A stretch of DNA of 64,000 nt from a virus (lineage: Duplodnaviria; Caudoviricetes), in the IMG/VR virus record IMGVR_UViG_3300003962_000006, positions 48,181 to 112,180 of that record, one strand, 5' to 3'. Shown here piece after piece: positions 11,155 through 56,902 of this stretch; the stretch's first letter is position 1, and each line of letters opens with the position of its first letter. The notes under the pieces are model-generated. The model ran no database searches and was not told the origin of the DNA. It was given only the letters and a program-made list of their open reading frames with translations. The position numbers and the translations under genes are program-made.

Positions 11155-12003
11155 ATGTCTCAAATGAAGGCAAAACTTGGGAGATACTACGATGATTTTA
11201 TAATCATGAAGTATTCTAGCGAAACTTTTATTTGTTATAATAAGGGCGGAGGTAAGAGTTTATTTATTTTTATACCTCCAAAATCATTTATAGCTTATCT
11301 TTCCTTTTCAGGAAAAGCTTTTGACTTCATTAAAGTTGCTCAAATTTTTAAAGTTTGCTTATGAAATTTTATAGATATAAAACTTTCGGCAATTGGTATT
11401 GCTTTGATTTTATAACATTTTCTCCCAAATACCGAGAATTGTTTAAATTTTGTGAAGGTTATAGAGAATTAGTATTTATTTCAACTCCAAATTATCATGC
11501 GAAAGCAACTTTTTTTAACGGCAGGGTTAAAAGAATTTGTGATTTCCATAAAGCTGTTTCTTTATTTAAGGTTTCAAAATGAAATGTGTAATTTACCGGT
11601 GTATGGCTAAATGTTTTGTGGTTAGATTTTTATCTCTTATTGATTTAGACGGAACGTTTGAAATTTATTATGCTAGTCCGGAACATTTTTATAGCTTTGC
11701 GAAAAAATATAATTTTAATTGTTATGACTTTAAAAAAATTGTTTCTTTATTTAAGGTTTCAAAATGAAATGTTTTATGACTTCGTACAAACCAAGAAATA
11801 GAATAAGAAGATGCTATTTCCGTTTTTTAGTTTTTTTGAAAAAAAATTCAATTTTTCATTTCGGGTATAATTCTATCTATTTGTATAATAACGGAGCATT
11901 CCAAGCAAATAAATCATTTCAAAAATCAAGAAATAGAAAATTGAGAAGTTATGATCTCCATAAAATTGTTTCCTTATTTAAGACTTGCGAGAGGAGAAAA
12001 TGA
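11155..12003 (+). other. cluster of 4 small ORFs of the C-terminal IKLFKxL family
   Basis: Ends AQIFKVCL, VSLFKVSK (x2), VSLFKTCERRK; ATGA overlaps. Confidence 0.7.
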
Positions 12004-12962
12004 AAAGAATTTTAATTATTGATGCTTTAAATTGTTTCTCCAGAGCCTACGCAATTTCTCCTGCGGTTTCGCCAGGTGGCGAGTTCATCGGGGGAATTAT
12101 CGGATTTTTAAAAATTCTTCAAAAAAGCATAAAACATACAAATCCAGACATGATAATTGTCTGTTGGGATAGCCAATCCAAAAGAAAAAAGAATTATGAT
12201 AAAAATTACAAAGAAAATCGTTCAAAAAGGTTTTCTAAACTTAACCGAAACATAGACTTTTTGAGCGAAGACCAAAGAAGAGAAAATTACAATTATCAAC
12301 GAAGCCGCCTGGTCGAGTATTTCAACAACCTCCCAATTATTCAATTTTGGTTTCAAGACATTGAGGCAGATGAAATTATTGGGTTCTTATGTCGTTCTCC
12401 TTATCTTGCTGGAGACCAAAAAATTATCGTTTCTGGTGATAAAGACTTCTTCCAACTCTGCGATAAAGAAACGATAATTTACAACTCCGGAGAAAGCAAG
12501 TTTAGAACAATAAAAACAATTATTCAAGATTATGAAATTCATCCAAAGAATTTTGCTCTCGCTAAATCAATTTGTGGCGACCCGAGCGATAATCTTAAAG
12601 GTGTTGGAGGAGTTGGATTTAAGACACTCATAAAACACTTTCCGTTTCTTAAAGAAGATTACGATTATACCATTCAAGACATTTTGGAAGAAGCCTCCAA
12701 GAAAATGTTGGAGAGCAACCTTAAGGTTTTTAAATCCATTGTTGAAAATGAAAAAGCAATCCATTCGAATTATAGAATAATTCAACTGTATTCCGTCATT
12801 CTTCCTTCGGAAAATGCGGAAACCATAAAAGAAACTCTTTCAGGTTTTAATCCAATCTTTCTAAAAACAGACTTTCTCAAAATGCTTATGCATGACGGAC
12901 TTGATGGAACAAATTGGGACGAATTATTTTCTTCTTGTCGCCGCATCTGTTCTGGGTTATAG
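12000..12962 (+). CDS. 5'-3' exonuclease / flap endonuclease (T4 RNase H-like)
   Basis: 'LIIDALN', 'YKENR', 'EADE', 'SGDKDFFQL', 'GDPSDNLKGVGGVG.KT'. Confidence 0.9.
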   Translation: MKRILIIDALNCFSRAYAISPAVSPGGEFIGGIIGFLKILQKSIKHTNPDMIIVCWDSQSKRKKNYDKNYKENRSKRFSKLNRNIDFLSEDQRRENYNYQRSRLVEYFNNLPIIQFWFQDIEADEIIGFLCRSPYLAGDQKIIVSGDKDFFQLCDKETIIYNSGESKFRTIKTIIQDYEIHPKNFALAKSICGDPSDNLKGVGGVGFKTLIKHFPFLKEDYDYTIQDILEEASKKMLESNLKVFKSIVENEKAIHSNYRIIQLYSVILPSENAETIKETLSGFNPIFLKTDFLKMLMHDGLDGTNWDELFSSCRRICSGL

Positions 12963-13022
12963 TCATAATTACAAAAACATCTTCGGTGTTGAAAGGAGCA
13001 CCTCAAACAACTTTAAAAAATT

Positions 13023-15497
13023 ATGGAACAAAACAACAAAATAACATTTGAACAATTCGGACATTCTTTTCAAGAAAAATTGGTCGCATCTCTTATCAAA
13101 GAGAAAGAATTTGCTGACCGAATGATGGAAGTTCTCAATCCACAATACCTCGCAAGAGATTATCTTAAAGAGATTGTTTCCATCGTTTTTGATTATCACG
13201 GGAAGTATAAATCCTATCCATCTCTTGAAACGCTCTCGACCATCTTAAAAACAACCGAGGGCGGTGGCGAAGAGCGTCTTTTTTCAATAACTTTTGTTGA
13301 TAATGTTCGACAAGGCAAAGTTTCTCTTGAAGACATTGACTTTGTCAAGACCCAATCGCTTGATTTTTGCCGAAAACAAAAACTAAACGAGGCAATGCTT
13401 CGCTCCATTAAATTATTAAAAAATTGCTCTTTTGAAGAAATCAAAAAAGTTATTGATGATGCCGTTAAACTTGGCGCCGAAAGAGACTTTGGAACAGACT
13501 ATCATGACGATTTCGAAATGCGTTATACCTCTGGAGAAGCCCGTAAAACAATTCCGACAGGTTGGGAACACATCGACAGAATAACTCAAGGTGGCCTTGG
13601 AAGAAAAGAGATAGGTGTCGTTATGGCTCCGACAGGTTGTCATGCGAAGGGAACATCAATTCTCATGTTTGATGGGAAATTGAAAAATGTTGAAAATGTT
13701 AAGGTTGGTGATAGGCTGATGGGCCCAGATTCTCAACCTAGAGAAGTTCTGCGATTAATTCAAGGAAGAGAGCAAATGTATAAAATTACACCGCATCGAG
13801 GTGGAGAACCATTCATTGTTAATGAAAATCACATTTTGTCTCTTAAAAGAACTAATGATGGCGTCAAAAGCAAACAATTTATAGAAATTTCCGTAAAAGA
13901 TTATCTATTAAAAAGTAAAACATTTAAACATGTTTATAAACTTCACAGAGCCGGTGTTGAGTTCGCCGAGACCGATAAGAAATTGCCTATTGCCCCATAC
14001 ATGCTTGGTCTTATCTTAGGAGACGGTCATCTTGCGACTTCGAGACATGTAGGTATAACTTCTTGTGACAAAGAAATTAAAGATTATGTTGTCAACTATG
14101 TTCAACAAAGGGAAAACAAACTAACATTAAAAAGTTATTCTAAAAAAACAAATGAAAACATTTTTGACATGAGAATTTGTAGAAACCAGAAGAAGCAAAA
14201 ATGGAAACGAGAACCAAGTTTCTTATTTAAAAGAATAATGACATTAGGACTCGAAAGAACGAGGTCGGGAAACAAGTTTGTTCCTGATGTTTATAAAACA
14301 TCTTCGAGAAAAAATAGGCTGGAAATGCTTGCTGGTTTGATTGACACCGATAGTCATCTTAGTAAAGGAGGTTGTTTTGAGTTTTGCTCTAAATCTAAGC
14401 AACTTGCTGATGATTTTGATTTTCTGGCGCGCAGTCTTGGTTTTACTTCTTCGCAAAGGTCCAAAATTGTTAATAAAACAACTTACTATGTTTGTGTTTT
14501 GAGCGGGGATTTATCTTTGATTCCAACAAAAATTGCTCGCAAGAAAGGCGACATTAGGAGACAAAAGAAAAATCATTTAGTTTCTGGATTTACAGTAGAA
14601 GAAGTAGGAGTTGATGATTTTTATGGCTTCACTATCGATAAAGATCACCTGTATCTTACCGGTGATTTTACAGTTCATCACAATTGTGGCAAATCGTTTA
14701 CGCTGACAAACATGGCTTCTCACGCGATCAAGCAAGGCTTTAATGTTATGTTCTTTTCTCTTGAATTGAGCGAAAACATTATTCACAAGCGCGTTGATTC
14801 ACGATTAACTGAAATTGAAATTGACGAACTTGATAATAATAAAGACAAGGTTCGGGAAGTTGAAAAAGCAATTCCCGGGACACTTAAGGTTAAGTGGTTT
14901 CCAAAGAAATCCGCTTCGGTTGATAGATTGCGAATGTTCCTTGATAAAATGAAGGAAACATCAGGGTTTGTTCCTGATGTCATCATGGTTGATTATGCGG
15001 ACATTATGAAGCCCGCTTTCAACAATCCGGAGAAACGGCATGGAATTGAAGGGATTTATGAAGACTTGGAAGCAATGGCGCAAGAACTTGATTGTGCTCT
15101 TTGGACGTGCTCTCAAACAAATCGTGGAGGAACCCAAAAAGAATTCGTGGAACTCGACTCAACCTCCGAGGCCTTTGCAAAATGTTTCGGAGCCTATCTT
15201 ATCCTGACGCTTCAACGGTCTCCCGAAGACAAGGTCGCGAATACAGGAAAGATGTTTGTCGCCAAGAACCGAAATGGTCCGGACGGGTTGTTATTCTCGT
15301 GCTTTATCGATACAGGAAAAGGAAGAATTGATGTCCTCCGACAAATCATCAAAAATGATGGAGGCATAACCAACCCGAGCGGCTCCGGAACGCCTTTTAA
15401 TGGAGATGAAAAATCTTTGGAGGTCTTGTTGGGGCAGAACAAAATAAATCTTGGCAGTTTCTTGGGCGGAAATAAAATGAAAAAGGTTGCGGAATAG
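13023..15497 (+). CDS. dnaB: replicative DNA helicase (DnaB/gp41-like) containing an intein
   Basis: Walker A APTG|CGKS split by intein; 'FSLEL', 'VDYAD', 'SQTNR', 'KNRNG'. Confidence 0.9.
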   Translation: MEQNNKITFEQFGHSFQEKLVASLIKEKEFADRMMEVLNPQYLARDYLKEIVSIVFDYHGKYKSYPSLETLSTILKTTEGGGEERLFSITFVDNVRQGKVSLEDIDFVKTQSLDFCRKQKLNEAMLRSIKLLKNCSFEEIKKVIDDAVKLGAERDFGTDYHDDFEMRYTSGEARKTIPTGWEHIDRITQGGLGRKEIGVVMAPTGCHAKGTSILMFDGKLKNVENVKVGDRLMGPDSQPREVLRLIQGREQMYKITPHRGGEPFIVNENHILSLKRTNDGVKSKQFIEISVKDYLLKSKTFKHVYKLHRAGVEFAETDKKLPIAPYMLGLILGDGHLATSRHVGITSCDKEIKDYVVNYVQQRENKLTLKSYSKKTNENIFDMRICRNQKKQKWKREPSFLFKRIMTLGLERTRSGNKFVPDVYKTSSRKNRLEMLAGLIDTDSHLSKGGCFEFCSKSKQLADDFDFLARSLGFTSSQRSKIVNKTTYYVCVLSGDLSLIPTKIARKKGDIRRQKKNHLVSGFTVEEVGVDDFYGFTIDKDHLYLTGDFTVHHNCGKSFTLTNMASHAIKQGFNVMFFSLELSENIIHKRVDSRLTEIEIDELDNNKDKVREVEKAIPGTLKVKWFPKKSASVDRLRMFLDKMKETSGFVPDVIMVDYADIMKPAFNNPEKRHGIEGIYEDLEAMAQELDCALWTCSQTNRGGTQKEFVELDSTSEAFAKCFGAYLILTLQRSPEDKVANTGKMFVAKNRNGPDGLLFSCFIDTGKGRIDVLRQIIKNDGGITNPSGSGTPFNGDEKSLEVLLGQNKINLGSFLGGNKMKKVAE
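13638..14684 (+). mobile_element. cis intein with LAGLIDADG endonuclease (349 aa)
   Basis: Starts CHAKGT, ends VHHN|C; 'LGLILGDG' and 'LAGLIDTDS'. Confidence 0.9.
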
Positions 15498-15498
15498 C

Positions 15499-15528: not shown

Positions 15529-15534
15529 TTGTGA

Positions 15535-16807
15535 ATGTTTATGAAACGCCGGTCGGGCTTTACGCATTACCCTTTTGATGGCGAGATAGTAATTCAACAT
15601 TTAGTCTGCGAGACTTATTATTGCACATGGGCACAAAGTGTAGAATACTTTATTTGTTCTTATGAAAGATTTTTGTTCTTTGATGAGAACATTAAAGATA
15701 AGTTTTATTCAAAAAACTTGATAAGTTTATTTAAAACATTATGAAATCTCGTTCAACAAGATTAATGGCGTTCGGTGCGGGCGTTATCGTTCAAGCGGAG
15801 TGGTTTTATCGTTATAGAATAAGCAATCCTTTATTATACATTATCTGTGGCACGGAGAGACATTATCAAAGTTATTATTATCTCTCCCAGTACCAAATTA
15901 TTTTATTTAAAGCATTATGAAAATTATAAATTATTGCGATGGAACTTTAAAGTTATCTTATTTATTTGAAAAATTTCCAAATGAAAAAGATTTTCAATTT
16001 GAGACTTTTGAAAAAGAGCATTTTATAGCTTATTTTCCTTATGCATTATCTTTTGAATTTGTTTCAAAGAAAAAAATTGAAATAAAAAACATTAAATTGT
16101 TTAAAACACTATGAAAAAAGTTATAGCATTCTTATGTTACCCTCATTCTTTCACTTCTCGAACCGTCGACGAATGCGAAATAAACATAAAAATGTTTGAT
16201 TGGTTTGTAGGTGGTATAGATGATAATTATTTTGATTTTGGAATAGATGACCTTGCCGTATTTGAGATTAAATCAAGAAAAAGAAACGGTTTTTTCTTTT
16301 TCTTGAATAAAGAAAGTGTAAAAATCTTTAAGCAATTATGAAAAAAGTTATAAAATTTTTATGTTTCCCGCGGACGGCGGAACCAAACGGCATATGTGAA
16401 ATAAACATAAAGACATTTAATTGGTTTATAGGTGGTTACCAAGAAAATTATCTTAATAGCGAATTACATTATCTCGATCTTTTTAGGATTAAATCAAAAA
16501 AAAGAAAGTGTTTCGGTGTTCTCTTGAATAAAAAAGATGTCAAAATCTTCAAACAATTATGAAAAATATTATAACATTTTTATGTTTTCGTTGGCAAGGA
16601 GAAATTAAAGTTAATTCTTGCGTTGTTGATTTAAAGATGTTCTGCCATAATAGAGCCATTAATCCTCGCTTTCACGATTGTATTTTTGATTGCCGGTCGG
16701 GTCCTATTGCTTTTTTTGGAATCAATGGACGTAATGCGAAAATGCAAGATTATTGTTATCTCGTTTCGCTCAAAGAAATCCAAATTTTCAAGCAACTTCA
16801 AACCTGA
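15535..16807 (+). other. cluster of 6 IKLFKxL-family small ORFs (includes untracked 15741-15920)
   Basis: Ends ISLFKTL, IILFKAL, IKLFKTL, VKIFKQL (x2), IQIFKQLQT; 16111 and 16338 are clear paralogs. Confidence 0.75.
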
Positions 16808-19964: not shown

Positions 19965-21077
19965 ATGATTTTTAATAAAATTTACATTCACGAGGTTAGA
20001 TTAGAAAATCAATTTTATTTTCTTAATGTTTTATTAATAGACAATTATTTTTTGGCCTTTAATCATTCCATTTTTAGTTTAAAACCAATTGATAATGCTT
20101 CGCTGGTTAAAGATTTTAAAAAAATCATAAAAATTTATGAATGCCTTTAAAAAAATTAACATTTATTTACAATACACCTGGTATAGCGTTGCTATAAATA
20201 ATGCTATTTTTATTGATAATGCATTTTTAACTGGAGATCAATCTGTTATTGACTTTAGAGAAAAAAGCAAAAATAATTTTTCATCAACTTTCTTCAAAAG
20301 AGTTGTTAAAATTTATGGAGTTCTTTAATGAATAAAAGAATTTATAACATTTATACAGGGAACAAAGTTAAAACAGAACCTTTCAGTATTTTTACAATTG
20401 ATTTTCTTTTCCTGGAACAGGATTATTCAGTATTTAACAAATTTCTATACATAAAATCTTCATCTATGGATAAGTCTATCTACCGCGACAGAGATTTTAA
20501 AAATCTCATAAAGAGTTTTAAATGCGTATTTTAAGGATAATTGTTTGGATTTATCAAATTGGTTCAAGACAAAATTGTTTATCTTTTGATATCTTATTTA
20601 TTTATGGTAAATTAGGTATTTTTTCACAATTTAACTTAAAAGAATTAGGTTCAATAAAGCGATTAAAAAAAGTTATTAGACTGCATAAAACCTTATGAGC
20701 AATTGTAATAAATTTAACTTGTATCCTTGCTATGCAGCTATTTGTCGTTATTTTGAATTTAATGCTTTTTTTATTGATAAAGAATTTTTGATGAGGTCGG
20801 GAGGCCCTTTTGGAAGCACCGGGGACAACATTCAGCGTTTTTCTTCAAATTTTTTAAAAAAAATGGTTAGATTATATAAAACATTATGAATACTTACGAA
20901 AAACTAAAAATCTATCCACTCTCTTGTTGTTTTTATTATAAGTTTAATTCTATTTTTATTGATGTGTATTTTTTATCTGGCTCAAAAAAATTTTTCGGTT
21001 GGGCCCGCCCGCCGACGACAGCTTCAAATTCCTTTAAAAAATTGATTAAATCCTATTTAATTAAAGATGTTTTTTGA
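19965..21077 (+). other. cluster of 6 IKLFKxL-family small ORFs (includes untracked 20522-20698)
   Basis: Shared 'FID..FL...FKK.IK.Y'; ends IKIYECL, VKIYGVL, IKSFKCVF, IRLHKTL, VRLYKTL, IKSYLIKDVF. Confidence 0.7.
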
Positions 21078-21594
21078 AAGAACCAAACAAAAACAAGAGC
21101 TTTCTCCTGAAGAAAAAGCAGATTTTATCTACTCCATTGTTGATGAATTTTCTCTTGCTCCGCAGGAAACAGACATCGATGTTGTCCCATCCATCAAGGA
21201 TGATTTAGGCATCGATGCAGCGGCCATCTTTGTCTCCTCGCCAAGAAGCGTTCATTATAAAAAAATCATTATTGATGCTCAAAGGTTTAATAATGATTTT
21301 TATAATGTTATTGAGGATGTCCTTCACGAGCTTGCGCATTTTAACCAAGTTTATCTCTGGGAAAACGGAATTCAAGAGAAACTCAAAATGATAATGCCGT
21401 TTCAACTTCCACAAGAATTGGAAGCCTTGAAAAATAATAGAAACGCTTTCATAAAAGCCTTGGAAGAGTATTCCATCTATGCTATACAGAGGTTCTGGTT
21501 GAAAGCTTATGGATACGAAAAAGCCCCTCATGAAGTTGAAGCAAGACAATTTGCCGCAAAGCATTTCTCTAGGGTTTTGGATGGGTTGGGATAG
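21067..21594 (+). CDS. putative zincin metallopeptidase-like protein
   Basis: HELAH (HExxH) plus 'APHEVEAR'. Confidence 0.6.
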   Translation: MFFERTKQKQELSPEEKADFIYSIVDEFSLAPQETDIDVVPSIKDDLGIDAAAIFVSSPRSVHYKKIIIDAQRFNNDFYNVIEDVLHELAHFNQVYLWENGIQEKLKMIMPFQLPQELEALKNNRNAFIKALEEYSIYAIQRFWLKAYGYEKAPHEVEARQFAAKHFSRVLDGLG

Positions 21595-22142
21595 TAAAAC
21601 TTTTTTCTCAATTTTAATTTATACTCATCCTTGTTCTCCGTCTTATATTTCGCGATACTTTTATTTAAAAAATAAAAATCCATCCCAACTAACTTCACTC
21701 CAAATTGCCTGCTTTCCTGTTTTATCTTTTACGAAAAAGTTTATAACACTTAAATGTATCAAATTATTCAGGATGCTATGAAAACTTTTTTTGGAATTGA
21801 TTATGATTTTGGAATTGATTATGAAGAAGAAATTTATTTCAAAATTTTTCATAATCTATCATTTTATGATAAAGAATTTCTCTGCAATAAATGCTGGTTT
21901 AATGTTTCTTTGAATTCAAGATATTTCAACAAGATTTCAATAGAAGACATCAAGGTTTTTAAATCATTATGAAAATAAGAATAAACGCTTTTCGGTTTTC
22001 TTGTTCTATTTATTTTTTTGTTTTTGATAGGTCTTTATTGTGTGATAAAAACATTGCCAGATTTTACATTGGCGATCTATTCCAAACACCTAAAAAATAC
22101 CTCTTGACAGGCGACATCAAAACCTATAAGATACTTTCATAA
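21581..22142 (+). other. cluster of 3 IKLFKxL-family small ORFs (includes untracked 21969-22142)
   Basis: Ends IKLFRML, IKVFKSL, IKTYKILS; ATGA overlaps. Confidence 0.65.
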
Positions 22143-22156: not shown

Positions 22157-22426
22157 ATGAGCGACATTAAAAATAGCCAAGCAAAGCAAGACAAAATTTT
22201 AGAATTTCTTAAAGCATTTGAGGAAATTGAGGAAAGTATCCGCCCTTTTGCTGAAAGCCGGAAAGACTTGCGAAAATCGTTTATTGAAAACGAATGGCTC
22301 ACCAAAGAAGAGATAAAATCAACAATTCAAGCCTATCGCATCGCTAAAAAGCGGGAGAACATAAATGAATTGAGCGACATTTATGACCTTATCAAAAAAG
22401 AGATTTTGCCTGATGAAGAAGAGTAA
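22157..22426 (+). CDS. small helical protein, possibly dsDNA-binding (T4 DsbA/GapR-like)
   Basis: Charged coiled-coil pattern with good SD; weak resemblance only. Confidence 0.35.
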   Translation: MSDIKNSQAKQDKILEFLKAFEEIEESIRPFAESRKDLRKSFIENEWLTKEEIKSTIQAYRIAKKRENINELSDIYDLIKKEILPDEEE

Positions 22427-22614
22427 AATTCATCTTTCTGGGTCTGGATTTAAATTTGCTATAATTCAATGTGGTTTTATTCTAAATTATTGTAACATTT
22501 ACGAATTCGACCCTCGAGGGATTATAATTTCTTTTATTGTAAAAAAGCCTTTTTATTATGCAACAATTACAAACAAGCGATTGATAGAGTTATTCAAAAT
22601 TTTGTGAGGCAAAA

Positions 22615-22908
22615 ATGAAATTCATTCCAAAAAATAAGTTTTTATTGATAGACTTCTTCGAAGAAGATGTCAAAAAAGAAGAAACCCGCCTTAAATGGGC
22701 TTCGCTCCAACCCGAAAAAAGAAGTGGAATTATGGTCGTCAAACTTCTCGCCGCCGCCGATGATTGCAAAGAGACGATAAGGCTTCTTCCAGAAGGTTCA
22801 AAGATTATGATTTTTTCTCATTTGATTGAGGAAAATGAATTTGAGGGAAACAAAATAATTCTTATTCCAGAAACAGCAATTATCGGCTCTTTTGAGGAGA
22901 CGTTATGA
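22615..22908 (+). CDS. groES: co-chaperonin GroES-like
   Basis: 'MKFIPKNKFLLI...ILIPETAIIG' GroES-type termini; GroEL also in window. Confidence 0.6.
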   Translation: MKFIPKNKFLLIDFFEEDVKKEETRLKWASLQPEKRSGIMVVKLLAAADDCKETIRLLPEGSKIMIFSHLIEENEFEGNKIILIPETAIIGSFEETL

Positions 22909-38879: not shown

Positions 38880-39095
38880 AACCTTTAAATTTGAATAGAA
38901 TTCGTTTTGAGTTTTCGTTAAAAAACTTTCCGGGAAAGCAGAAATACAAACTGCCCACCAGCGCGATGTCGATCGGCATAGAAGATGAAAGCGCTACTTT
39001 TTTTTATTTAAAAAAACCTAAATTAGAACAAGAATTAACAATTTCATCAACAAATTTACAAAAAATAGTCAAATTAAACAAGGTCATAGAATAAA

Positions 39096-41820: not shown

Positions 41821-42816
41821 AAATAAACTTTATTCGTGGCCAACCTCAGACTGGTTTTGTATTCCATTTTATAATGCTTATGATGATTGTAGATTTCAAA
41901 GAAATGCTTTTATAATTTCATCTATTGATGCTTGTTTTTTTGTTTTTTTCCTTAATTCAGACCTAAGAAAAACCAGCATTAATTCAATCAAGGTTTTTAA
42001 AATTTTATGAAATACATAAATTTCTATAACGGCTCGTATTTTGGATTGGTTATTCATTTTTATAGATTTTTTAGCAGACAGGTGTGCTTCGGTTCTTTTA
42101 TTATTGATGTAAGTTTTAAAAATGAAATGTTGTGGATGTATGATGGCGCTCTCATTTGCGAGCCTTTTGAAAAAGATCTTATAAAGGTTTTTAAGATTTT
42201 ATGAAAACTTTCTATAATGGGTTTAAAATAACAAAGCCAATCTTTTACGATAATAAAAGAAAATGGCCGTGGATTTCAACAGGCCAATTTATCAATTTTG
42301 GTTTTTGGTTTAGAATTGATGGTTATTCTTCCTCTACCCAAAAGAGGGACAATCTCTATGCTCTAACTTCTCTTGTTGCAACACACTATCCGACTTTAAA
42401 CAAAGATAATGTTAAACTTTTTAAAATTTTATGAAAAAAATAGGTTATTACTACGACGTCCTTAAAATAACGGATACCCGGTTTTTTAGTAATCTTTCTA
42501 AAAGAAGATTTGGGATTTGTGTTTTTGAAGGCTTTCTCGTCGGGCGGCTCACCTACGAGGAAACTTCAGGTGTAGACCAAAATTCCCTTATGATAGATTG
42601 CAATAAAATCAAGGTTTTTAAATTTTTATGAAAATTTTATGGTATTATGAATGTTTTAAAGAAATTATAATTAGAAGATTTCAAATTTATGATTGGGGAG
42701 GTTGTTATAATAATTTTTCAGTATTTTTTGATTTTCAAATGTCCGAAAAGACTTATTTTCCATTACCTTGGAATGGAACAAAGCGATTTATAAAAATCTT
42801 TAAACTTCTTCCTTGA
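41804..42816 (+). other. cluster of 5 IKLFKxL-family small ORFs
   Basis: Ends IKVFKIL (x2), VKLFKIL, IKVFKFL, IKIFKLLP; ATGA overlaps. Confidence 0.78.
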
Positions 42817-43212: not shown

Positions 43213-43841
43213 AACGAACAGCATAGGCAAACAAAAAAGGAGCAATTAAACAAATTATGGCAACCAAAAAGAAAAACAATCCGGTTTGGGAAGCAGAATA
43301 CAATAAGACTCATAAAGAAAAAGTTATGATGCTTACCGATGCTTTTTCGGACGAACGAAACGGGCTAAACAACCATCTCAACCGAGATGAATGGAGCGCT
43401 TATTTCAAGGCTTTGATTGAGAATCCTGATTCACTTCCGGACGAGGCCACAACCAAAAAGCTTTTTGATAAAAGCAAGGAGAACAACTATCTCGGCGAAG
43501 TTATTGAAAGCTACCTGAAAAATCTGACCTTGGAGTGGAAGTTCTCCGTTGAAGAGGTTGTTAATTTCGAGGACACCCGAGGAATTATTGTCGCGAAAGC
43601 GCCATACCTTCCTTACGCTTCTCCGGAAGGTCTTGTTTATTCCGTTCAAAAATACGGCGCAACCTCGCCACAATTGGCGACCCAGCGCCAACTTCTTCTT
43701 CTCAACCCACGATAATTTTCACGAAATCTCCTCGTTTGTTGAAAATGATGAGCGAGGAGATTTCTTTTCATTATGAAAAATCGTAGAATGCGTGGCCTCT
43801 CTTGAGGAGGAAATCAAGACTTTTCTCTATTTACGATAAGA

Positions 43842-44077: not shown

Positions 44078-44953
44078 ATGATAAATTATAGAAGGCTTCA
44101 AGAAAATTTTAACAAGTATCGTCAAAGTCTTGATGAAAAAGCCAATTTGGATGTTGAAAATTTGGCGATTTATTCTCAAAAATTTGGTTCATCCAACATT
44201 TTTTATCTTTATGATTATCGCGCATTTGCTGCGAATTATCTTGGTGGGGAGACTGGATGGGAAAAGATTGTCCTAGGAATGATTGATTTTGGCCCAAGTC
44301 GGGAAGTTACAGATGAAACTCCTTGTTTTTCCACATCTTCCAAAACAATTGTTTATGAAGTTCACCGAGTTGTCGCTCAAAACAAACTTGGACCTCTTCT
44401 TTATGACCTTGCGCTTGTCTTTGCAAGCCAGGTTGGCGGAGTCGGCTTGATGGCCGACCGAGCGATTGTTCGACCGGAAGCTCAAAGGATTTATAACGCT
44501 TGGTTTAAATCCAAAAAAGGAGCGACTGGAATTAATGTCTCTGCCATTAAAATGGATAAACCCCCGCCAGAAAACCGAACAACGCCGACTATTGATGATT
44601 GTGTTGTTCATGACGAAGAACAATTTGATCCTTCGGTCAATTACTTGTATCGAACAACTTCGCAGAGTTCTATTCTCGAAGGGCTTATCAAAAACCATCA
44701 AAAAGTTATTGATTTGGTTTCAAAGGAGACGCTCATAAAGAAAGGCGAGCTGGAACAACAAATTACCGATGAGGCCACCGAACTCTGGAAATCAAATTTC
44801 AACGAAGAAGAAGATTATCAAAGAAAGATAAAAAAAGGATACGAAAAAAAGAAGCGACAATTAATAGGGCTTGGCGGAAACCGCGATTCAGGGTACTATC
44901 AAGTCAAGAATGCCTTCTACAAAAGATCGAAAAATGCCCCAGAAGGGTTTTAA
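44078..44953 (+). CDS. hypothetical protein with GNAT-like segment
   Basis: 'V..V.A..KLGPLLYDLA......GLMADR..V..EA..IY' resembles GNAT motifs A/B. Confidence 0.4.
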   Translation: MINYRRLQENFNKYRQSLDEKANLDVENLAIYSQKFGSSNIFYLYDYRAFAANYLGGETGWEKIVLGMIDFGPSREVTDETPCFSTSSKTIVYEVHRVVAQNKLGPLLYDLALVFASQVGGVGLMADRAIVRPEAQRIYNAWFKSKKGATGINVSAIKMDKPPPENRTTPTIDDCVVHDEEQFDPSVNYLYRTTSQSSILEGLIKNHQKVIDLVSKETLIKKGELEQQITDEATELWKSNFNEEEDYQRKIKKGYEKKKRQLIGLGGNRDSGYYQVKNAFYKRSKNAPEGF

Positions 44954-45418
44954 GAATGGTGAAGGTGTTTTTGTCGCAAAATTATCGAAATTTTCCATAG
45001 GAAATTATCAATACAAATTGTTTTTTCGTTTTTATTCTTTTTCAAAAGAACTTGTCTTGTTTCATCAACGACGGGAGTCTATTTTTGATTTAAATTACGC
45101 AACTCTTGGAAACTCTCCGCAAAGTTTTATCAAGGTTTTCAAGCTTTTATGAAATTAAAGGAAAGATTAATTATCTTTAATACGGGTTTTACCGAAGTTT
45201 TGTATTTTTTTCGTTATGGATTTGAAACTCGCTATGTTTTTTGTAAAAGTATTGGAATTTATTTACAAGGTTTTAATCTAGATTATACTTCTTTAAGATT
45301 TCCCACGCCGGGTTCATTTAGCGAGGAAATTATTTGGGGAAAACAAGATAATCTTAAACATAAGCATCGATTTTCTGTTTTAAGTAAACAGATAATTTCA
45401 TTATTTAAGGTTGTATGA
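44934..45418 (+). other. 2 IKLFKxL-family small ORFs (others at 45739-45942 and 48700-48915)
   Basis: Ends IKVFKLL, ISLFKVV. Confidence 0.65.
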
Positions 45419-46025
45419 AAAAAGTAAAATACCATCTTCTTGAAAAACAGAAATTTTCTTATCACGCAAAACAATTTTCTTATTTTTGTCTTCTTGGGAT
45501 TTTATGGATTTTTCGTTATGTCTTTAACCCAAAATGTGATGTTAATTCGTCATTTTACAAATTCTATTTTAAGACAATTTCCAAGATTGCCATTCCAATC
45601 ACAGAATACGAAATGTTTTTAAATTCTTTAAATGAAGAAAGAGAAATTTTGGAAATAGATAGACAAGAAGCAAAAAAAATTGATAAAATCCTTGATAAAG
45701 TTGTAAAAAACAAAGAGCCAATCATCTGGAATTAAAAAATGAGATTTTTAAGAGGAAGAATTAATCAAACAACTTTAACGATAAACGTCTTTAAAAATAA
45801 GAGTTTTTATCTTGAGAGAATAAATAAATGTCATCTTGATTTTGACCGCGACCAAGTTTCATTTTATTATTTTTATCCTATTATTATTTTTGATCTCTTC
45901 TCAAAAAACGAAATAAAGGAATTTTTAATGCTTCGTCTGTGATTTTTCGCTTGACCAACGCTAAACAACCCCATTAAGGTTCTATTCAAGATGATGAAAA
46001 CATCATCAAAACAAAAGGAAAACAA

Positions 46026-47171
46026 ATGAGCACCAAACAAAAAAAGAAAACCTCCTCTCGTATTACCACCTCTTTCCGTGAAGTTTCAATTCTCGCCCCC
46101 CGCATTGCGGCAACTCACAAGCCAATTCTTTTGCGAGGGCCACACGGCGTGGGCAAGAGCGAAGTTGTCTATCAGCTCGCCAAACCTTTCGCAAAGGCTT
46201 TGGGACTTATCGATAAGTATCCTCAAGGCCTTCCTGTGGTCGAGCGGCGTTTAAGCCAGTGCCCGGACGCAGGCGACTTGACCGGTTTGCCCGAAATTCG
46301 AGATGGAGTGACCCATCTTAACCCGATGGATTGGTTTAACCGAATTTGTCTTGAGCCTTGCCTGTTCTTTGCCGACGAAATTGACCGGGCCATGCCGGAT
46401 GTTCGACAGGCGTTCTTCGAGATTACCGACTCTCGCAAGGTCGCTGGTCGGCTCCTGCACAAGGACACTATCATCGTCGGGGCCATTAACGGCGGAACGG
46501 AAAATGCGAACAACTATCAAGTTGGCGAAATGGACCCTGCCGAACTTGACCGCTGGGTTGTTTTTGATGTTTCTCCGACCGTTTCGGAGTGGCTAGAATA
46601 CGCCAACGCTCAACGAGTCAATCCAATGATTACGGAATTTATTCAGAGCGCCAATGAGCACCTGGAACACGACGGGGAAAACTTCATTCCTGGAAAGATT
46701 TACCCTTCTCGGCGTTCCTGGTTCCGGCTGAACGAAGTTTTGGAGGAAAAGGATTTGGAAGAGGCGAAATCGTATCTTCCAACTCTTTTGAACGCTTATG
46801 TCGGCCAAGAGGCGAGTCTTGCTTTTTACGAATTTGTTCGCCAGTATTCCAAGGAGGTTTCTATTGAGGATGTTATTACCAACGGAAAATTCTCTCCTTT
46901 GAAAAACTGGAAACAGGTTGAATTCACGAAATTCATGGACAAGATGTATAACCATGCTATAATGGATGAGAAATTGTCGAATACGCAAAAGCAGAATTTC
47001 GTAAGGCTTTTCAAAATGCTTTCGGCGGAAACCAAAATCACTGTATTCCAAAATCTTTCTGCAAAGAAGATTGGATTTTGGATGCAAGTTGAAGGTTTGT
47101 TGAGCAAAGAAATCGTTGAATTGACCAGGAATTCGCTTATTCATCCAAACGACATGACCGGGAAGGACTAA
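46026..47171 (+). CDS. MoxR-like AAA+ ATPase
   Basis: Walker A 'GPHGVGKS', Walker B 'FADEIDRA', 'MDPAELDRW', 'PSRRSW'. Confidence 0.88.
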   Translation: MSTKQKKKTSSRITTSFREVSILAPRIAATHKPILLRGPHGVGKSEVVYQLAKPFAKALGLIDKYPQGLPVVERRLSQCPDAGDLTGLPEIRDGVTHLNPMDWFNRICLEPCLFFADEIDRAMPDVRQAFFEITDSRKVAGRLLHKDTIIVGAINGGTENANNYQVGEMDPAELDRWVVFDVSPTVSEWLEYANAQRVNPMITEFIQSANEHLEHDGENFIPGKIYPSRRSWFRLNEVLEEKDLEEAKSYLPTLLNAYVGQEASLAFYEFVRQYSKEVSIEDVITNGKFSPLKNWKQVEFTKFMDKMYNHAIMDEKLSNTQKQNFVRLFKMLSAETKITVFQNLSAKKIGFWMQVEGLLSKEIVELTRNSLIHPNDMTGKD

Positions 47172-48444: not shown

Positions 48445-49334
48445 TAAAACAAAGGAACTTTCTCATTTCCTTAAAGAAAACCTTAAAAAGCATTTTTCCA
48501 AAAATGATTTGGAGATGATTTCATCTTTTATTTCATTTGAAGAAAATGAGAAAGTTTCATCTTTCTTCTTTGCGAAAGAACAAAGCAAGATTTTTTATAA
48601 TCCTGAAATTCTAACTGTTGATGAAAATGGTTGGGATTATAAAAGCATCTTTGAGATTGATTTACAAAACGCCTTGCAGGATTTCGAGGATTTTATTGAA
48701 TGCGGAAATCAACTCAATTAAAGGGGATTTTTATAAATCCTGAATGTTTGATGATTTATTTTTTCATCAATAAAGATAAAGAAAATTCCTTTTCATTTTA
48801 CAAAGAGGAATTACGAAAAGCTAAATTTCCCTATTCTGGGTTTTTAAAGCCTGGAAAGTTGTTTTGCGAAAAACAAGAAATTAAAAATTTTCGTATGCTT
48901 AACAAAGCATCTTGACAAGAGACGGAAGCCATGAGAGACTAATTCAAAGGAGCAACGAATAAATGAGCCAAAATGTTATGAATACCACCAAAGAACAAAT
49001 CGAGGCAGCTCGAAAACTTCTGGAGCACGACCCTTACGCCTATCGAAAAAAGTGCACCCCCGCCAAGTTTGGCGAATTGGAGCACGGCGACATGTACGAG
49101 TATGGCGCCGAAGGTGATTGGTTTGTTAAAATCAATCCCACGGAGCACATTTTCACTAAAAGCAAAGTCAATTCTGTTGAGGTTTCACCTTGGGCAGAAC
49201 AACTTTGGTTTAAAGACGACATGCCGGTCTTGACCATCATTAAGAAGGATGAATGGAAAACCTTGTTCGAGTGGGTTAATGAAATGCAGAAGAAGGGTTA
49301 CATCAACCCCGAAGAAGATGATGAGTGATTTGGG

Positions 49335-49377
49335 AAAGTTAAGCAATCTGTAATGGGTTGCTTAACTTTCTATTTTT
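49335..49377 (+). terminator. hairpin / likely terminator upstream of the tRNA-like gene
   Basis: gaaagttaagcaa/ttgcttaactttc stem followed by tattttt. Confidence 0.6.
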
Positions 49378-49454
49378 AGGAGCATATCTCCTTGCGCTTC
49401 TAACGCATTGAAAGAGTAAATGGATACATGAGGGTTCGACTCCCTCTGCTCCTA
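49378..49454 (+). tRNA. atypical tRNA-Arg(UCU)-like RNA lacking a normal D arm
   Basis: Acceptor AGGAGCA/TGCTCCT+A; T arm GAGGG-TTCGACT-CCCTC; anticodon stem TGCG/CGCA with loop CT-TCT-AA. Confidence 0.65.
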
Positions 49455-49637
49455 CTTTATGAAAACCACATTATCAATCTGCAAGTACCTTTTAAGCGTT
49501 TTATTGATTTGCTCTTTCGTGCTCGCGCTATTCTTTTTAAGCATAAACGAAGGTTGGCGGGCTCTTTTCGAAATCGGTAAATGCTTTTTTGGTTTTGCAT
49601 TTCTATACTTGGTAGGCCAGGCTGAAAAGAAAATAAA

Positions 49638-50862
49638 ATGAAAAAGCGAGTTGGTTTTTCTTCTTATTATTTAAGAATTCCTATCTATTCTTGGCTTGGT
49701 GATGATAGTTTCGCGGTCTGGAATGACTTTGCGGAGGTGAACAGCTTATTTGAGATTATTGGAGAAAAGTACAGATTGTGCTTTTTTTCATCGAAAGGCT
49801 TGATCAAGGTGTTCAAAACACTATGAAAACATTTATTTTTTTAACAAGCCGAGCCATTCGAATTAATAGATATTTTTTATTTAATTTTGATTTTTCATCT
49901 CAGGGGGATTTCTTCTATTCAATAGAAAATTATTTCGAGTTAAACCATAATTATCTACCCAAATGTGATTGCGACATCACGAAAAAGATGGTAGCCTTGT
50001 TCAAGGTCCTATGAAAGACGACGAGTATCCATACATTCAGGTTTTTTTTGATGTCTATGAAAAGAATTTTTTAGGTTCTTATCAGCTTATCTGTTCATTC
50101 ATTCAAGAATGGGACGCTGTTGATTATTGCCGGAAAAAGAACGGAAAAAGTCTTTTAAGCTCTTATTCTTACCGACAAAGGATTGTTAAATGAAAAATCA
50201 ATTGGAGATTTTATACCATCAAGGTTCCAGTCGGGAAGATGGTGCCGAACCCTATTATGAGCTTATTGTTTTTGTGATGGCTTCTTTTGAAAAACTTGAT
50301 TATTATTGCGCTTCTTTATTTGGGTACTCACATAAAGTATTTGTGCCAGGAACTTCTTTATTTACCGAAAAAACAATTAAGCTCTTTAAAACCTTATGAA
50401 AACCATTTTTTATGCTTTGTGGGATGATGTTGATAATTTCTATCCAATAAAGCATTTTTTTTGTTATTATGAAGTTGTTAGAGCTAATCTTCCAAAATCT
50501 GTCGGAGGAACTTATCTTTTTAGAGACCAATTCGTTTCTTCTTTTGGAACTTGCCAAGACAATCCTCCCAAAGACTTTTCAAAAACCCTTATTAAACTCT
50601 TTAAAACATTATGAAAAAAATAATTGTAACTTATTGGGGCCGCTGCGGCGAAGAACACCAAGAAAATTTTTTTTATCTTAGAAAATACACGATTTTTACA
50701 AACGCTTCTCTGCGCATACAGTTTAAGCTTGGAACTGGTTGTTTATTCATCTTTATTTCCAAATTCTTTCACGGAGAACCTCTTCCGGATGTTTCGAAAA
50801 CCCCTATCAAACTTTTTTCGCTTCTCAAAGACGATTTGCTATTGACCGCGCCCGAAAAATGA
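49638..50862 (+). other. cluster of 5 IKLFKxL-family small ORFs (one unrelated ORF interleaved)
   Basis: Ends IKVFKTL, VALFKVL, IKLFKTL (x2), IKLFSLL... Confidence 0.72.
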
Positions 50863-50925
50863 TGAATGATGGATTTAACGATGCAATCAAGCATCGCAAT
50901 TAAAAAGAAAGAAAGAGAAAATTTT

Positions 50926-53046: not shown

Positions 53047-53438
53047 ATGATGCTATTTCTATTATTGCCTACGTATTTTAATTGGCGCCGAAAAATTCGC
53101 AAACGCCATTATGAAGTTCCATTTGTGGATTTAGGGGAAGCAGCAATTAAGCAAATAATGTTTCAAAATCTTAACCCAAGACTTAAATCTCTTAAAAAAA
53201 TAAAGGTTTTCAAGTGCATCCTTTGAAGATAGAGTTTAACCTTAAGGATTTAGTTGTTTTAACTTACCCTTTAAAAAGGACAGATTTCAAAAAATACTGT
53301 TATTGGGCTTTTTATCTTAAACCTACCGCCTTCTTGTTTTACACAACTAAACCTACCGCCTTCTTGTTTTACACAATTAAACCGGAAGGTTATTCAAACC
53401 TGTCTTTCCTCACGATAAAGGTTTTCAAACTTCTATGA
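53047..53438 (+). other. 2 IKLFKxL-family small ORFs (53047-53226 untracked)
   Basis: Ends IKVFKCIL, IKVFKLL. Confidence 0.65.
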
Positions 53439-55578
53439 AAAATTTAATCATTCAAACTCAAATCTTTAATCTTCAAAGCATTCTCGGCCATGTTAATCAA
53501 GACATTATTCATTTTTCAACCAACGAAATAGACTTTGACCGCGCCGAAGACGCTGAATACGAAAAAAAGCTCATTTTGCAAGAGATTGAGGATTGCTATG
53601 ACGCCCTCTTCCTGCTAGATTCGGTCGCAAGGAGTTAGAAAATGCCTCTTTCTATTATCGGCATCCAAGAAACCATTTACCAAATTCGTGACAACCTTTT
53701 GAAGGTCCCAAATCTTCCTGTTGATGTTCTTAAGAAAAGCGACGATGATTTTTCAATTGTCTGTTGCATCTACCGCCCAAAAACTTTGGAATTTTCTTTC
53801 AATTTTTATGAACCAAAGTTGAAAATGCTTTTTAAACGAGATGATAAAGTAATTAAGGAAAGCATTATTCCCCTTGACAAAATGTTTGACGTTAAGCAAT
53901 TGGAACTTATCGGGAAAATGGCACAAGAATGGTGCCTCAAAGAAAGCAACATTCTTTTATGCAAAGAGGTTTAAAAAGTGGATAAACGAAGATTTTTTTT
54001 AGGAAATGTTCCCGAAGGGGAAGAGCCAATTTTATTGGACGACATTGATTATTTTGAGAATTGCGAACAATCTTGCAAGGATTTCATAAGATTAATTCGT
54101 AAGAAGTTAGGCAGGGAGCCGCCGGATTCAAAATTAAAACTTTTAAGAGATGCGGATGACGATTCCGGACAAGAAACAATTCAGGTTGTTTTTGTTTATA
54201 ATGAAGATGACGATGATTGCCTTGACTATCTCGAAAAGTTGGAGCAAGATTGCCCTAAGACTTGGGATGATGATTGCGGAGAGGAATAAGCACAATGGGC
54301 GGCTCAATTAACATAACGCTTCGGAAAAATGATGGCAAGACTAAAAGGAAAATAAAATGAACCCTTATTTTGAAAAAGAAGAAGACCAGAAAACGCTTAT
54401 TTATAACAACGCCGACTATCACCGCTTCTTTTTGGAGGCCCGCAAGCTTGACTTTCGTGTTGTGCAAAGGCAGGATGGAAGGCCAATGATTAAGACCGAT
54501 AAGTGGGCCGTCTGGTCTATGTTGAATTATTTTTCAATTCCTGTTCATTATTTCCGGGGAAAGAACAAGACAGATTTCTTTATTTATCCAAAGAAGTCAT
54601 GAAAAAGAAACCAACAAAAAGACGAAATCCCTTTGCGCTTCCCGCAAAGATGAGAAAAGTTAAGAAATTTAAATCTAAAAAGGATTATAAAAGAGTTAAA
54701 AAAGTTGAAGTTGAATAGACTTTTTATCTTTTAAAGAAAGAATTATTATGGACACCGTTTCTGCCGCAGAACTTCTCGCCTCCAAAACCCCCGCAATTGT
54801 TTTTGAATCTTTCTTGAAGAAAGCGAAAAATACAAAGCTGGAAATTGAAGAAGACATTAAAAAAGCAAGAATGAATTTTCATCCTCAAAATGAACTTAAA
54901 TTCAAGGAAGAGCTTAAAAACTTTCTCGCCAAAGAAGAAATGATTATCACGATGTTCATTAAAAGCGGGTACATTCCGCTTTTCGCGAGCGCGCAAGAAC
55001 TATCAAAATCTTTTATTGTTTATGCGTGAAAGAAATTTAAAATGAAAATTACAATTACAATGAAAAACCCAGACGCTCTCTTAGATGGCATTGATGATGC
55101 CATCAAAGAAGAGATTGAAGAACTTCAATTACCTCCTGATGAAGCCGAAGCTCTTTTTGAGGTCCGGCAAGAAAGAATTAAAAAGATTGCCTCCAAATGG
55201 TTTGAATACGGAGAATACCTCTCCGTCCAAATTGACACCGAGAGCGAGTCCATCGCGGTCCTTCCGGTCAATCCCTAATGGGGGCAAGATGCCCCCTTGA
55301 CACACAACATTCGGTCGTGCTATTGTTCATAGCGCGTGGAGGAGGAATAAGCTATGAACTTGTACAAGGTTGTTTGCACTGGCCATGTTCACCGGCTATC
55401 CTATTGCGTCATCGCGCAAACGGAGTTCAAGGCCAAGATGATGGCTCTCTCTGAGACCACCCAGAGGTTTCAGGTGGGCAAGTCCTCAGTCAAAGATGCC
55501 GAGGTGCTCAAAATGAACGTTCAGGCGAACGCACCCTGTTGTTTCTTGATTGAGCAGATTAAACCAAAGAGTTAAATT

Positions 55579-56902
55579 ATGTTGGTTGCGACCAGAAACT
55601 ATTTATTTAATGTCTATGTGTGGGTTAAAGCATTCCCTTTTGTGTACCCAAAAACTTATAACAACAGAGCAATTGGATTGTCTTTTTTAGGTAAAGGGTT
55701 AGAGCGGTGGAGTATTATCACCGCGCCGTATTTTTATTATGGGAGTAGCTCAATCAAAGTCTTCAAGTATTCAAAAAAGATTATCAAAGAGTTTAAATTA
55801 TGCTGAAAATTTCGGATTCAACTTCGACCACGCCTGAAAAATTGTTGGTGTGGATAGAAACTTTTGAAGTTTTTTTGATCTCATTTAATAATCCATTTTT
55901 CGGTTTATGTTTTTTAAATTACCTGAATTATGACCTTAATAATGTTTGTTTGGTTGCGAATGATAATTTTCGTTCTCCGAATGCATTTGTAAAAAACGCT
56001 TCGGTTCCTAACAATTTCATCAAAATTTATAAGGCCTTATAAAAATGTTTTTCAATAATCAAGGATGGCTTAATTTAAAGTCTTATGTTTTTTACCTTAA
56101 AAAAGGGATTTATGAACATTTAGGCTTTCACTTTTTTTATTCTAACTATGAAGTTTTTTCTGATGAATTTGGCCTTATTTTTGAGGAAGTTTTTTTTCAT
56201 AAACCAATCCCGCTTAAGTTTATTAAGCTCTTTAAAACATTATGAATTTCCTCGAAGCAGCGCTCAAAGCCAAACAAGAAAGTCGATGGTTCCGCTTGAC
56301 CACCTGGCGAGGTTTCTGCTATGCTTTTGGATGGGTTGGTGACGAGTTGGTCATAACGACCAATGACAATTGGAAGTTCATTTCAATAACCGGGAAGGAT
56401 TTGGAAGGGATTTGGGAGGTTATTGACCCATTTGATTGTGAAACATCTGGTGCCGCGATTTTGATGGAAGATTTATGATTTCTTTTAATAAAGAAAGTTA
56501 TGGTCTTTTCATTAATCTAAAAACCTTTTTTATTTATTATTGGAAGGAAGGCATCTATAAATATAAAGGATTTTGTCTTTTTGATTACGACCTCTCTGGA
56601 CAAAGATTTCAGCATCTTTATGAGATTTCAAGCGCCAAATGTTTCAAATTTCCGGTTCCTAATAAATTGATAAAAATTTTTAGGTTATTATGATTTATTT
56701 TAATAAAAGCGATTTTCATAAAGAAATTTATCTTAATTTAAAAACAATTCCATTTTTTTTTCATCATTGCTATAGTCTTGTAGGGTATTGTTTAATGGAT
56801 TACAGCATGAAAACGATCTACCCTCTCTCCTTCCAGGATGGCACAGCTTTTCGGTATCCCCTTGACAACAAAACCATCAAGCTCTATCTTATAGGCAAAT
56901 AA
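55579..56902 (+). other. cluster of 5 IKLFKxL-family small ORFs (one unrelated ORF at 56242)
   Basis: Shared 'NLK.F....Y...G.C/H..P...IK'; ends IKEFKLC, IKIYKAL, IKLFKTL, IKIFRLL, IKLYLIGK. Confidence 0.72.

Follow-up and report, generated by a model that had tools for sequence, protein, structure and literature searches.

A lineage-specific family of about 66 small open reading frames with a conserved C-terminal heptapeptide in a myovirus genome

Introduction

The stretch of viral DNA analyzed here (the window, 64,000 nucleotides (nt), bases 48,181–112,180 of the virus record IMGVR_UViG_3300003962_000006) carries a large family of small open reading frames (ORFs) whose products share little except a C-terminal heptapeptide, [IV]K[LIV][FY]KxL, which is IKLFKTL-like and is located mostly right at the stop codon. 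In the whole record the family amounts to about 66 members of 50–98 amino acids (aa) and occupies about 12% of the genome. This heptapeptide (the tail) is conserved as a peptide and not as DNA, its synonymous sites being free, whereas the remaining part of each protein (the body) is under no purifying selection on its residues. Moreover, arrays of these ORFs (cassettes) expand, contract and fuse by unequal homologous recombination in the tail-coding DNA. The interpretation that we favor, with a rough probability of 0.45, is that of a lineage-specific birth-and-death family in which only the open frame, the restart context and the C-terminal tag would be selected, the tag being a shared signal.

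Census of the Family and Distribution of the Tail

A greedy gene map of the + strand shows chains of 50–98-aa ORFs with IKLFKTL-like ends. Within the window, 54 family ORFs were curated, all on the + strand, of 57–98 aa, arranged in 18 clusters or singletons and adding up to 11,477 nt, in good agreement with the 55–58 ORFs of 55–90 aa over some 12 kb counted in an earlier reading made from the letters alone (the sequence-only reading). Approximately 41 of the 54 have a strong tail, while in about 13 it is degenerate or extended. The clusters follow core genes such as RecA/UvsX, DnaB, ribonucleotide reductase, DnaE, an IMPDH-like gene and GroEL, as that reading had described. The family extends beyond the window, which corrects the earlier description: eight more members lie at genome positions 10,954–12,309, and four more are found on the minus strand in the structural module, beside the head and sheath genes.

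The terminal position of the tail is supported by several counts. A strict regular expression finds 37 tails in the window at most 5 residues from the stop. When the strict tail is required at most 1 aa from the stop and behind at least 40 open codons, 41 instances are counted genome-wide on the + strand and one on the − strand, against a mean of 0.26 and a maximum of 3 in 200 shuffles, so that the motif is far more frequent than at the ends of shuffled ORFs, a comparison that the sequence-only reading had called for. The DNA version of the tail junction gives 10 matches in the window and none in shuffles. With a ten-column position-specific scoring matrix (PSSM), about 50 ORFs reach at least 9.7 bits, whereas all other ORF ends stay at or below about 6.5 bits, and an unrestricted six-frame scan places 50 of 51 matches of at least 9 bits within 5 aa of a stop, in line with the original claim of a shared motif at or near the stop. 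All tailed ORFs have at least 50 aa, with the exception of one decayed remnant. The PSSM scan detects no member in 1–11 kb or 57–64 kb of the window, and thus the previously reported absence from 2–11 kb and 57–64 kb holds.

Tail-like sequences were also observed outside the family. The sole internal family-grade PSSM match (19.2 bits, 46998–47021) lies inside the AAA_5 gene 46026–47171, at residues 325–332 of a MoxR-like protein and 49 residues before its end; it could be a chance match or a real shared motif. Furthermore, a 112-aa protein of the structural module (1669–2007) has a near-tail, one residue shorter than the motif and below the PSSM cut-off.

Conservation of the Tail as a Peptide

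The codons of the 37 tails that end exactly at the stop vary freely at synonymous sites. Ile is encoded by ATC, ATA and ATT in 13, 11 and 13 cases, the first Lys by AAG and AAA in 18 and 16, Phe by TTT and TTC in 28 and 9, and the second Lys by AAA and AAG in 25 and 12, and all four first bases are used at the hydrophobic position. The final base of the tail alone is fixed, because the ATGA overlap with the next start codon (see below) fixes it. These counts agree with the earlier proposal that synonymous variation reflects protein-level selection on the motif. At the position two residues before the motif, Lys or Asn predominates, and the mean hydrophobic moment of the tail is 0.55 when modeled as a helix and 0.16 as a strand.

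Natural Strains: Selection and Cassette Turnover

Natural strains were gathered as Logan contigs with exact copies of two window proteins, which gave eleven loci covering 39–60 kb of the window at 95–99.9% identity. For whole ORFs, the ratio of non-synonymous to synonymous polymorphism (pN/pS) is 0.65–0.78 in the family and 0.04–0.08 in core genes (Fisher test of family versus core, p = 3e-11). This relaxed constraint is distributed very unevenly along the ORFs. Unique variant codons number 49 non-synonymous and 7 synonymous in the bodies, while the last 8 codons show a single non-synonymous change (Ile to Val) and 8 synonymous ones (tail versus body, Fisher p = 1e-5), which answers the suggestion that substitution ratios of body and tail be compared. 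Under neutrality, about 72% of changes would be non-synonymous and 23% synonymous, and 5% would create a stop; measured against this, the bodies have a nominal excess of replacements (binomial p = 0.02), and no stop was seen among the body variants between strains (P about 0.05). All variant ORFs are intact and the indels between strains are in frame. Some clustered changes are recombinational replacements, e.g., the first 17 codons of 50611–50862, and the synonymous changes in tails probably reflect tail swapping.

Whole cassettes are gained and lost between strains, as shown by a comparison of cluster content of the kind proposed with the sequence-only reading. Eight structural differences separate the strains in 39–60 kb, and cassettes are concerned in six of them. 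In X9, position 41985 is joined to 42607, three cassettes being gone, with 16 nt of identity at a joint that lies inside two tails, while in the L026/L033 group 42012 is joined to 42181 with the loss of one cassette and 26 nt of identity. Conversely, L028 has an extra 56-aa cassette at the tail 49806–49830, with ATGA overlaps on both sides, a perfect tail and 25 nt of identity, and two further cassettes (76 and 67 aa) are present in other strains at 43785/43812, where the window strain retains a 10-codon stub and a stranded tail. A 189-nt in-frame deletion in L026/L034 fuses two neighbors into an 86-aa ORF that keeps the tail, and three 1-nt deletions within 11 nt at 38948–38958 in X9 are in frame as a net result. 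The joints of cassette gain, loss and fusion sit in tails, with 6–26 nt of identity, and strain-specific new cassettes also bear the tail. The alternative suggestion of a selfish mini-cassette that spreads at gene ends is thus partly borne out, inasmuch as copy number varies among strains and the joints lie in tail-coding DNA.

Translational Coupling and Composition of the Bodies

ATGA stop/start overlaps are present at 36 of 53 family starts. A Shine–Dalgarno (SD)-like core precedes only 4 of the 53 family starts, compared to 27 of 55 starts of other genes; therefore, the host uses SD sequences and the family relies on coupling, in accordance with the chaining without obvious SD described before. 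Among the tails that end exactly at the stop, 34 of 37 stop at TGA. Nevertheless, at least seven perfect tails occur without an ATGA overlap, 8 of 50 tails sit 1–4 residues from the end, and a minus-strand member outside any chain with core genes has a perfect tail. The N-termini of members have only Met-Lys in common.

The bodies proved as unalignable between clusters as the sequence-only reading had maintained. After removal of the last 12 residues, BLAST links 8 pairs among 69 members and 1 pair among shuffled bodies; the closest paralogues share 53% identity, and the majority of pairs cannot be aligned. Some pairwise similarities extend over the full length. The idea of local duplication within clusters, indicated by cluster-specific motifs, holds for recent duplicates in the DnaB cluster; however, a few similarities also join distant clusters and not neighbors only. 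In a five-fold held-out test, a profile of the bodies gives real bodies no advantage over shuffled ones (p = 0.09). The three codon positions hardly differ in composition, with G at position 1 at 0.19 versus 0.33 in core genes, and the amino-acid composition correlates more closely with the random expectation from the T-rich bases of the ORFs themselves (r = 0.79) than with core proteins (r = 0.58). The members have a median isoelectric point of 9.4 and 20% aromatic residues, as opposed to 5.1 and 10% in other small proteins of the phage, although random translation of such DNA would give equally basic and aromatic proteins. At this base composition, 65 codons would stay open by chance with a probability of about 0.004, and therefore openness itself is selected, as is a length of at least 50 aa.

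Genomic Context, Relatives and Possible Origin of the Tail

The record is a single virus record of 112,180 bp with 36.6% GC, and nearly all of its genes are on the + strand. Genes for the large terminase, portal, major head protein and tail sheath identify this uncultured wastewater virus as a myovirus. A T4-like replication set is also present, consisting of gp32, UvsX/RecA split by an endonuclease insert, a 5'–3' exonuclease, an intein-bearing DnaB and ribonucleotide reductase, together with ThyX, a three-piece DnaE, an IMPDH-like dehydrogenase, a ClpP-like head maturation protease, an amidase, GroEL and a pair of AAA_5 and DUF2201 genes. The genome is unusually rich in selfish inserts, namely inteins/LAGLIDADG elements and the split RecA and DnaE. 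The DnaB intein (window 13023–15497) contains a LAGLIDADG endonuclease (Pfam PF05203 and PF14528), and the 1058-aa portal ORF (genome 17939–21115) also has a LAGLIDADG-type match. Near-identical DNA is found in sequencing runs of 10 studies of wastewater, bioreactors and sludge, while no close relative of this phage was found in a phage collection. A search with GroEL among genome contigs gave only a contig of an archaeal-labelled metagenome-assembled genome at 37% identity, a match that does not point to a host.

The family is lineage-specific and, judged from gene order, has been inserted into a backbone that is conserved. No DnaB homologue exceeds 46% identity, and syntenic relatives at 44–46% DnaB identity lack the cassettes while keeping the order RecA, exonuclease, DnaB, ribonucleotide reductase, two small conserved genes, ThyX and DnaE with no cassettes between them. 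In the relative L037, the genes that flank cassette 22383–22607 abut directly, and the family occurs in none of 15 loci found through DnaB at 33–45% identity. The nearest relatives (L037, L038, L001 and L014), with DnaB proteins 42–46% identical, stem from marine and other metagenomes; their replication modules have the same gene order, and their small genes are of an ordinary, acidic kind. Homology searches were equally negative. Pfam returned nothing for 10 members; PHROGs gave no significant family for 49 members, with a single match at E = 0.004; and a word-indexed search of 5.8 billion clusters yielded no homologue. An exhaustive profile search of 1.84 billion representatives, the sensitivity of which is limited for low-information profiles of 65 aa, returned 5 matches, all of them proteins of the window itself, and a scan of IMG/VR with the junction DNA pattern gave ten contigs with one match each and none with further tailed ORFs. 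A literature search found no published description either, in keeping with the initial impression that this is not a described system.

The only protein of known function with a family-grade tail is DnaE fragment 3, which ends in NIIKNFKML (15.3 bits) and is ATGA-coupled to an array of four cassettes. The unsplit DnaE proteins of two relatives without the family end in SIKYNWKLLG and SIYHNFRILG, and the DnaE of a Cellulophaga phage aligns to its very end. A tail-like ending is thus native to DnaE, and therefore the aromatic-basic-x-Leu core of the tail may descend from the DnaE C-terminus or else mimic it, which is to be taken as a lead only. The AlphaFold2 (AF2) model of the DnaE C-terminal domain is too uncertain to place its tail as free or as part of the barrel. 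The possibility that the bodies are diverged copies of the DnaE OB-fold was rejected, as hhalign aligns just 9 tail columns with a probability of 0.7%.

Cassette Loci in the Window

The family loci in the window, given in window coordinates, are as follows.

11128–12003, + strand: four members downstream of the C-fragment of RecA/UvsX; in the last one, the tail is extended at its overlap with the SD and start of the exonuclease gene
15535–16807, + strand: six members after the intein-bearing DnaB; 16111–16341 and 16338–16562 are recent duplicates (53% identity)
19965–21077, + strand: six members after ribonucleotide reductase; tails partly degenerate; three members mutually similar
21509–22142, + strand: cluster of three members
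22383–22607, + strand: single cassette between the two genes that abut directly in relative L037
25587–26259, + strand: three members upstream of DnaE fragment 1; last tail degenerate
32470–32496, + strand: C-terminus of DnaE fragment 3, tail-like (15.3 bits on the PSSM), ATGA to the next cassette
32493–33239, + strand: four members directly coupled to DnaE fragment 3; tails near-consensus
35618–36415, + strand: three members after the IMPDH-like dehydrogenase
36692–36935, + strand: single member with extended tail, then a stranded tail at 36906–36935 (13.9 bits, only 15 open codons ahead)
38876–39094, + strand: degenerate single member after the ClpP-like head maturation protease; site of the 1-nt deletions in X9
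41804–42816, + strand: five members overlapping the GroEL stop; one or three cassettes missing in strains
43773–43839, + strand: remnant of two cassettes intact elsewhere (10-codon stub and stranded tail)
44871–45418, + strand: cluster of two members
45739–45942, + strand: degenerate single member
48700–48915, + strand: degenerate single member with a 4-residue extension
49638–50862, + strand: six members; extra cassette of L028 at 49806–49830; first 17 codons of 50611–50862 replaced in other strains
53047–53438, + strand: two members; 53214–53438 holds an in-frame tandem duplication of nine codons
55579–56245, + strand: three members; the first two fused in L026/L034
56475–56902, + strand: two members, paralogues of 56045–56245; last tail degenerate

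Some further features were observed at or near these loci. The nine-codon duplication in 53214–53438 agrees with a separate remark on micro-duplications in the sequence-only reading. The divergent GroEL gene (40243–41820) and a possible GroES-like gene (22615–22908, proposed by position and size only) each adjoin family cassettes. Just 3' of gene 43257–43715, a perfect inverted repeat of 12 bp followed by a T run (43723–43764) resembles a terminator with a long loop, and strain-variable cassettes lie directly behind it. Most other strains have about 100 nt in place of the stretch 49336–49456, which holds a tRNA-like sequence, and in strain L031 an HNH_2 endonuclease gene adjoins it on the opposite strand. 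At 54335, other strains (L026, L033) have an insertion of 696 nt that encodes an acidic protein of 233 aa not present in the window strain.

Interpretation and Alternative Explanations

According to the favored birth-and-death reading, selection would act on three features, namely an uninterrupted frame of at least about 50 codons, an efficient restart context formed by the ATGA overlap and an AAA second codon, and the amphipathic C-terminal heptapeptide, while the bodies would diverge at a neutral or faster pace, so far that paralogues can no longer be recognized. The tail could then serve as a short linear signal by which polypeptides of arbitrary sequence are directed to the same partner; candidates are the membrane, the capsid interior, a protease or adaptor, and a protein hub of host or phage. 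The family might act by tag dose or as a pool of variable heads with one address, and the signal shared by the members probably serves for docking, targeting or degradation. It had been proposed before that the family is a library of variable heads with a constant tag. As a description this stands, since the tail is under strong purifying selection as a peptide and the bodies change at the neutral rate or faster, but the anti-defence or host-takeover role suggested for the family is hypothetical. The bodies look random-like rather than like a binding scaffold, and neutral drift accounts for them no less well than a designed library would.

Several points weigh against the birth-and-death reading. 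Both the production of the proteins and the role of the tail as a portable address or docking signal are inferred, and expression may be low, the members being without SD. Neutral filler, too, would be expected to have random-like bodies and a ratio of substitution rates (omega) near or above 1, and the non-synonymous excess may partly reflect recombination with diverged alleles and not selection. Moreover, the selection statistics rest on contigs L026–L036 and the strain comparison on 39–60 kb. Structure models show low-confidence beta-hairpins (predicted local distance difference test score, pLDDT, 39–62) and no clear free helix. Finally, several cluster-end members without ATGA coupling have degenerate or extended tails, which a pure docking tag would not predict.

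An extension of the shared-address idea would see the family as a translation-coupled nursery of about 66 quasi-random polypeptides with a constant C-terminal address to one cellular or virion partner, renewed by recombination at the tails and serving as a source of counter-defence or host-takeover functions. We regard this extension as a rather improbable scenario.

The first rival is that the cassettes are tolerated filler or a selfish accordion without a function of its own, which would multiply and disappear through recombination between tails and persist only as long as it is open, leaving translational coupling to the genes downstream intact, and as long as its products are harmless, the tail neutralizing the product, e.g., as a degron. 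Random-like bodies with omega at or above 1, reliance on ATGA without SD, core genes embedded in the chains, strain-variable copy number and the existence of decayed remnants are all compatible with this idea, as are the many other selfish elements of this genome (inteins, homing endonucleases and an intron) and relatives that manage without cassettes. On the other hand, a packaged genome would bear a heavy burden if about 12% of it were filler, and in T4 amplifications force compensating deletions (PMC9391042). In addition, peptide-level conservation holds for each of about 50 tails individually, and the minus-strand member, uncoupled to core genes, keeps a perfect tail. We deem filler unlikely; if it were the whole explanation, a packaged virus would be carrying about 12% of coding-looking junk held open by translational coupling.

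The tail could also be the C-terminal capping helix or strand of a small, fast-evolving, beta-rich fold, in which case the members would be ordinary diverged paralogues, with heads each having a function of its own. AF2, run for one member with a 49-member alignment, gives two beta-hairpins followed by a short C-terminal helical turn (pLDDT 62, the C-terminal helix being weakly predicted), and the ESM Atlas model of one member lies nearest to PH-like folds (a beta-sandwich with a C-terminal helix) with template modelling scores of 0.5–0.59, a lead only given the low confidence of that model. The full-length similarities between some pairs of members point in the same direction. Nevertheless, all models have low confidence (pLDDT 39–62; 0.39–0.41 for the ESM Atlas models), Foldseek of the AF2 model against BFVD gave nothing at E <= 0.001, the ESM Atlas reported no feature hits, and there is no family-wide body profile, so that the structural check proposed with the sequence-only reading did not bring out a shared fold. 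Furthermore, a folded core should show purifying selection in the bodies, and none is seen. This explanation is accordingly quite unlikely.

A further possibility is that the tail acts as a nascent peptide in the ribosome at termination, modulating release or recycling for restart at the overlapping AUG, with the ORFs as relays governing translation of the genes downstream. Conservation in known regulatory leader peptides is at the amino-acid level. The restriction of amino-acid-level conservation to the last 7–9 residues by the stop agrees with such a role, as do the prevalence of TGA and of ATGA starts without SD, and the degenerate tails of several uncoupled cluster-end members. However, coupling through ATGA works as a rule without any signal in the peptide, nothing explains why 66 relays should be kept when relatives do without them, and a minimum length of 50 aa would not be needed; the perfect tails without an overlap and those set back 1–4 residues from the stop are not expected either. 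A nascent-peptide role is thus very unlikely. Lastly, it is extremely improbable that the ORFs are untranslated, their frames being incidental, and that the junction is repeated as a promoter, terminator, recombination site or similar element of DNA or RNA, since, even though recombination does happen at the repeat, 66 frames are open despite the low probability of such runs, the synonymous sites of the tails vary while their residues are fixed, indels between strains are in frame, and promoter-like and terminator-like sites are found at shuffle level only. The RNA run X20 gave nine short contigs with only non-family genes in 38–57 kb, too few to bear on family expression.

Comparison with Known Systems

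The internal-protein loci of T4 are variable. T4-type internal proteins have a capsid targeting sequence (PMC3012670, PMC7697877) and resemble the present family in being small, basic and fast-evolving, in having a short constant address peptide, and in their location in variable loci of myoviruses with a T4-like replication module. However, in T4 the tag stands at the N-terminus, undergoes cleavage by the prohead protease and occurs in a handful of genes, whereas the tag described here is C-terminal and occurs in about 66 genes, mostly among replication genes; no conserved N-terminal targeting peptide of about 10 aa as in T4 is found, the N-termini sharing only Met-Lys.

Modular shuffling mediated by PeSL elements (an intergenic promoter plus stem-loop) takes place in the hyperplastic regions of T4-type genomes (PMC2839356, PMC4122927). 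In both cases short repeats flank small non-essential ORFs, and recombination makes the insertions, deletions and replacements that separate close strains; here, the joints 41985/42607, 42012/42181 and 49806–49830 lie in tails. PeSL elements are conserved as DNA, while the family repeat is a coding 3' end conserved as a peptide. An intergenic early promoter with a terminator stem-loop was not found at the repeat, which is coding and has such sites at shuffle level.

The amplification of T4 tifA is an example of a genomic accordion (PMC9391042). Accordions and cassettes are alike in the recombination-driven change in tandem copy number of a small viral gene between close lineages, although accordion copies are near-identical, transient and at one locus and family copies are ancient, diverged beyond recognition and dispersed over about 20 loci; no tandem near-identical copies are present, the best pair being 53% identical. 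Poxvirus K3L is another genomic accordion. The family shows with unusual clarity how viral ORFans may arise, i.e., by duplication at a conserved junction and neutral drift of the bodies, until paralogues turn into apparent orphans that would nevertheless be translated, and this bears on the question of where phage orphan genes come from (PMC12315717). It also relates to experiments in which random sequences readily acquired phage-related functions (PMC12557735).

Stop-proximal conservation also invites comparison with arrest peptides, in which it is limited to residues adjoining the stop or stall site. The same limitation is found here, but 8 of 50 tails are 1–4 residues away from the stop. 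The beta-clamp motif QL[SD]LF is not matched, as there is no conserved Gln before the tail and that place is mostly taken by Lys or Asn. A phage clamp or a ClpX-type protein was considered as partner and rejected; no clamp gene or ClpX-type gene was recognized in the phage, and the ClpP-like gene matches head maturation proteases.

Further parallels are bacterial C-terminal signals, which include ClpX degrons (the LAA end of ssrA and the basic-hydrophobic ends of the MuA type), the SspB tail, the membrane-targeting helices of MinD and FtsA, and the cargo-loading peptides of encapsulins. Like them, the tail comprises basic and hydrophobic residues, within a stretch of 7–12 residues at the extreme C-terminus, and would act apart from the protein body. 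The tail has no LAA-type (ssrA) end, and it matches none of the consensus motifs known for these signals; with a hydrophobic moment of 0.55 versus 0.16 it does resemble the amphipathic basic-hydrophobic C-terminal helices of MinD and FtsA, membrane binding being only putative. If the tail is an address signal of this kind, no larger family of tagged proteins would be known from any phage, the partner of the tail would represent a hub, and the tail would constitute a portable 7-residue tag with possible use as a tool.

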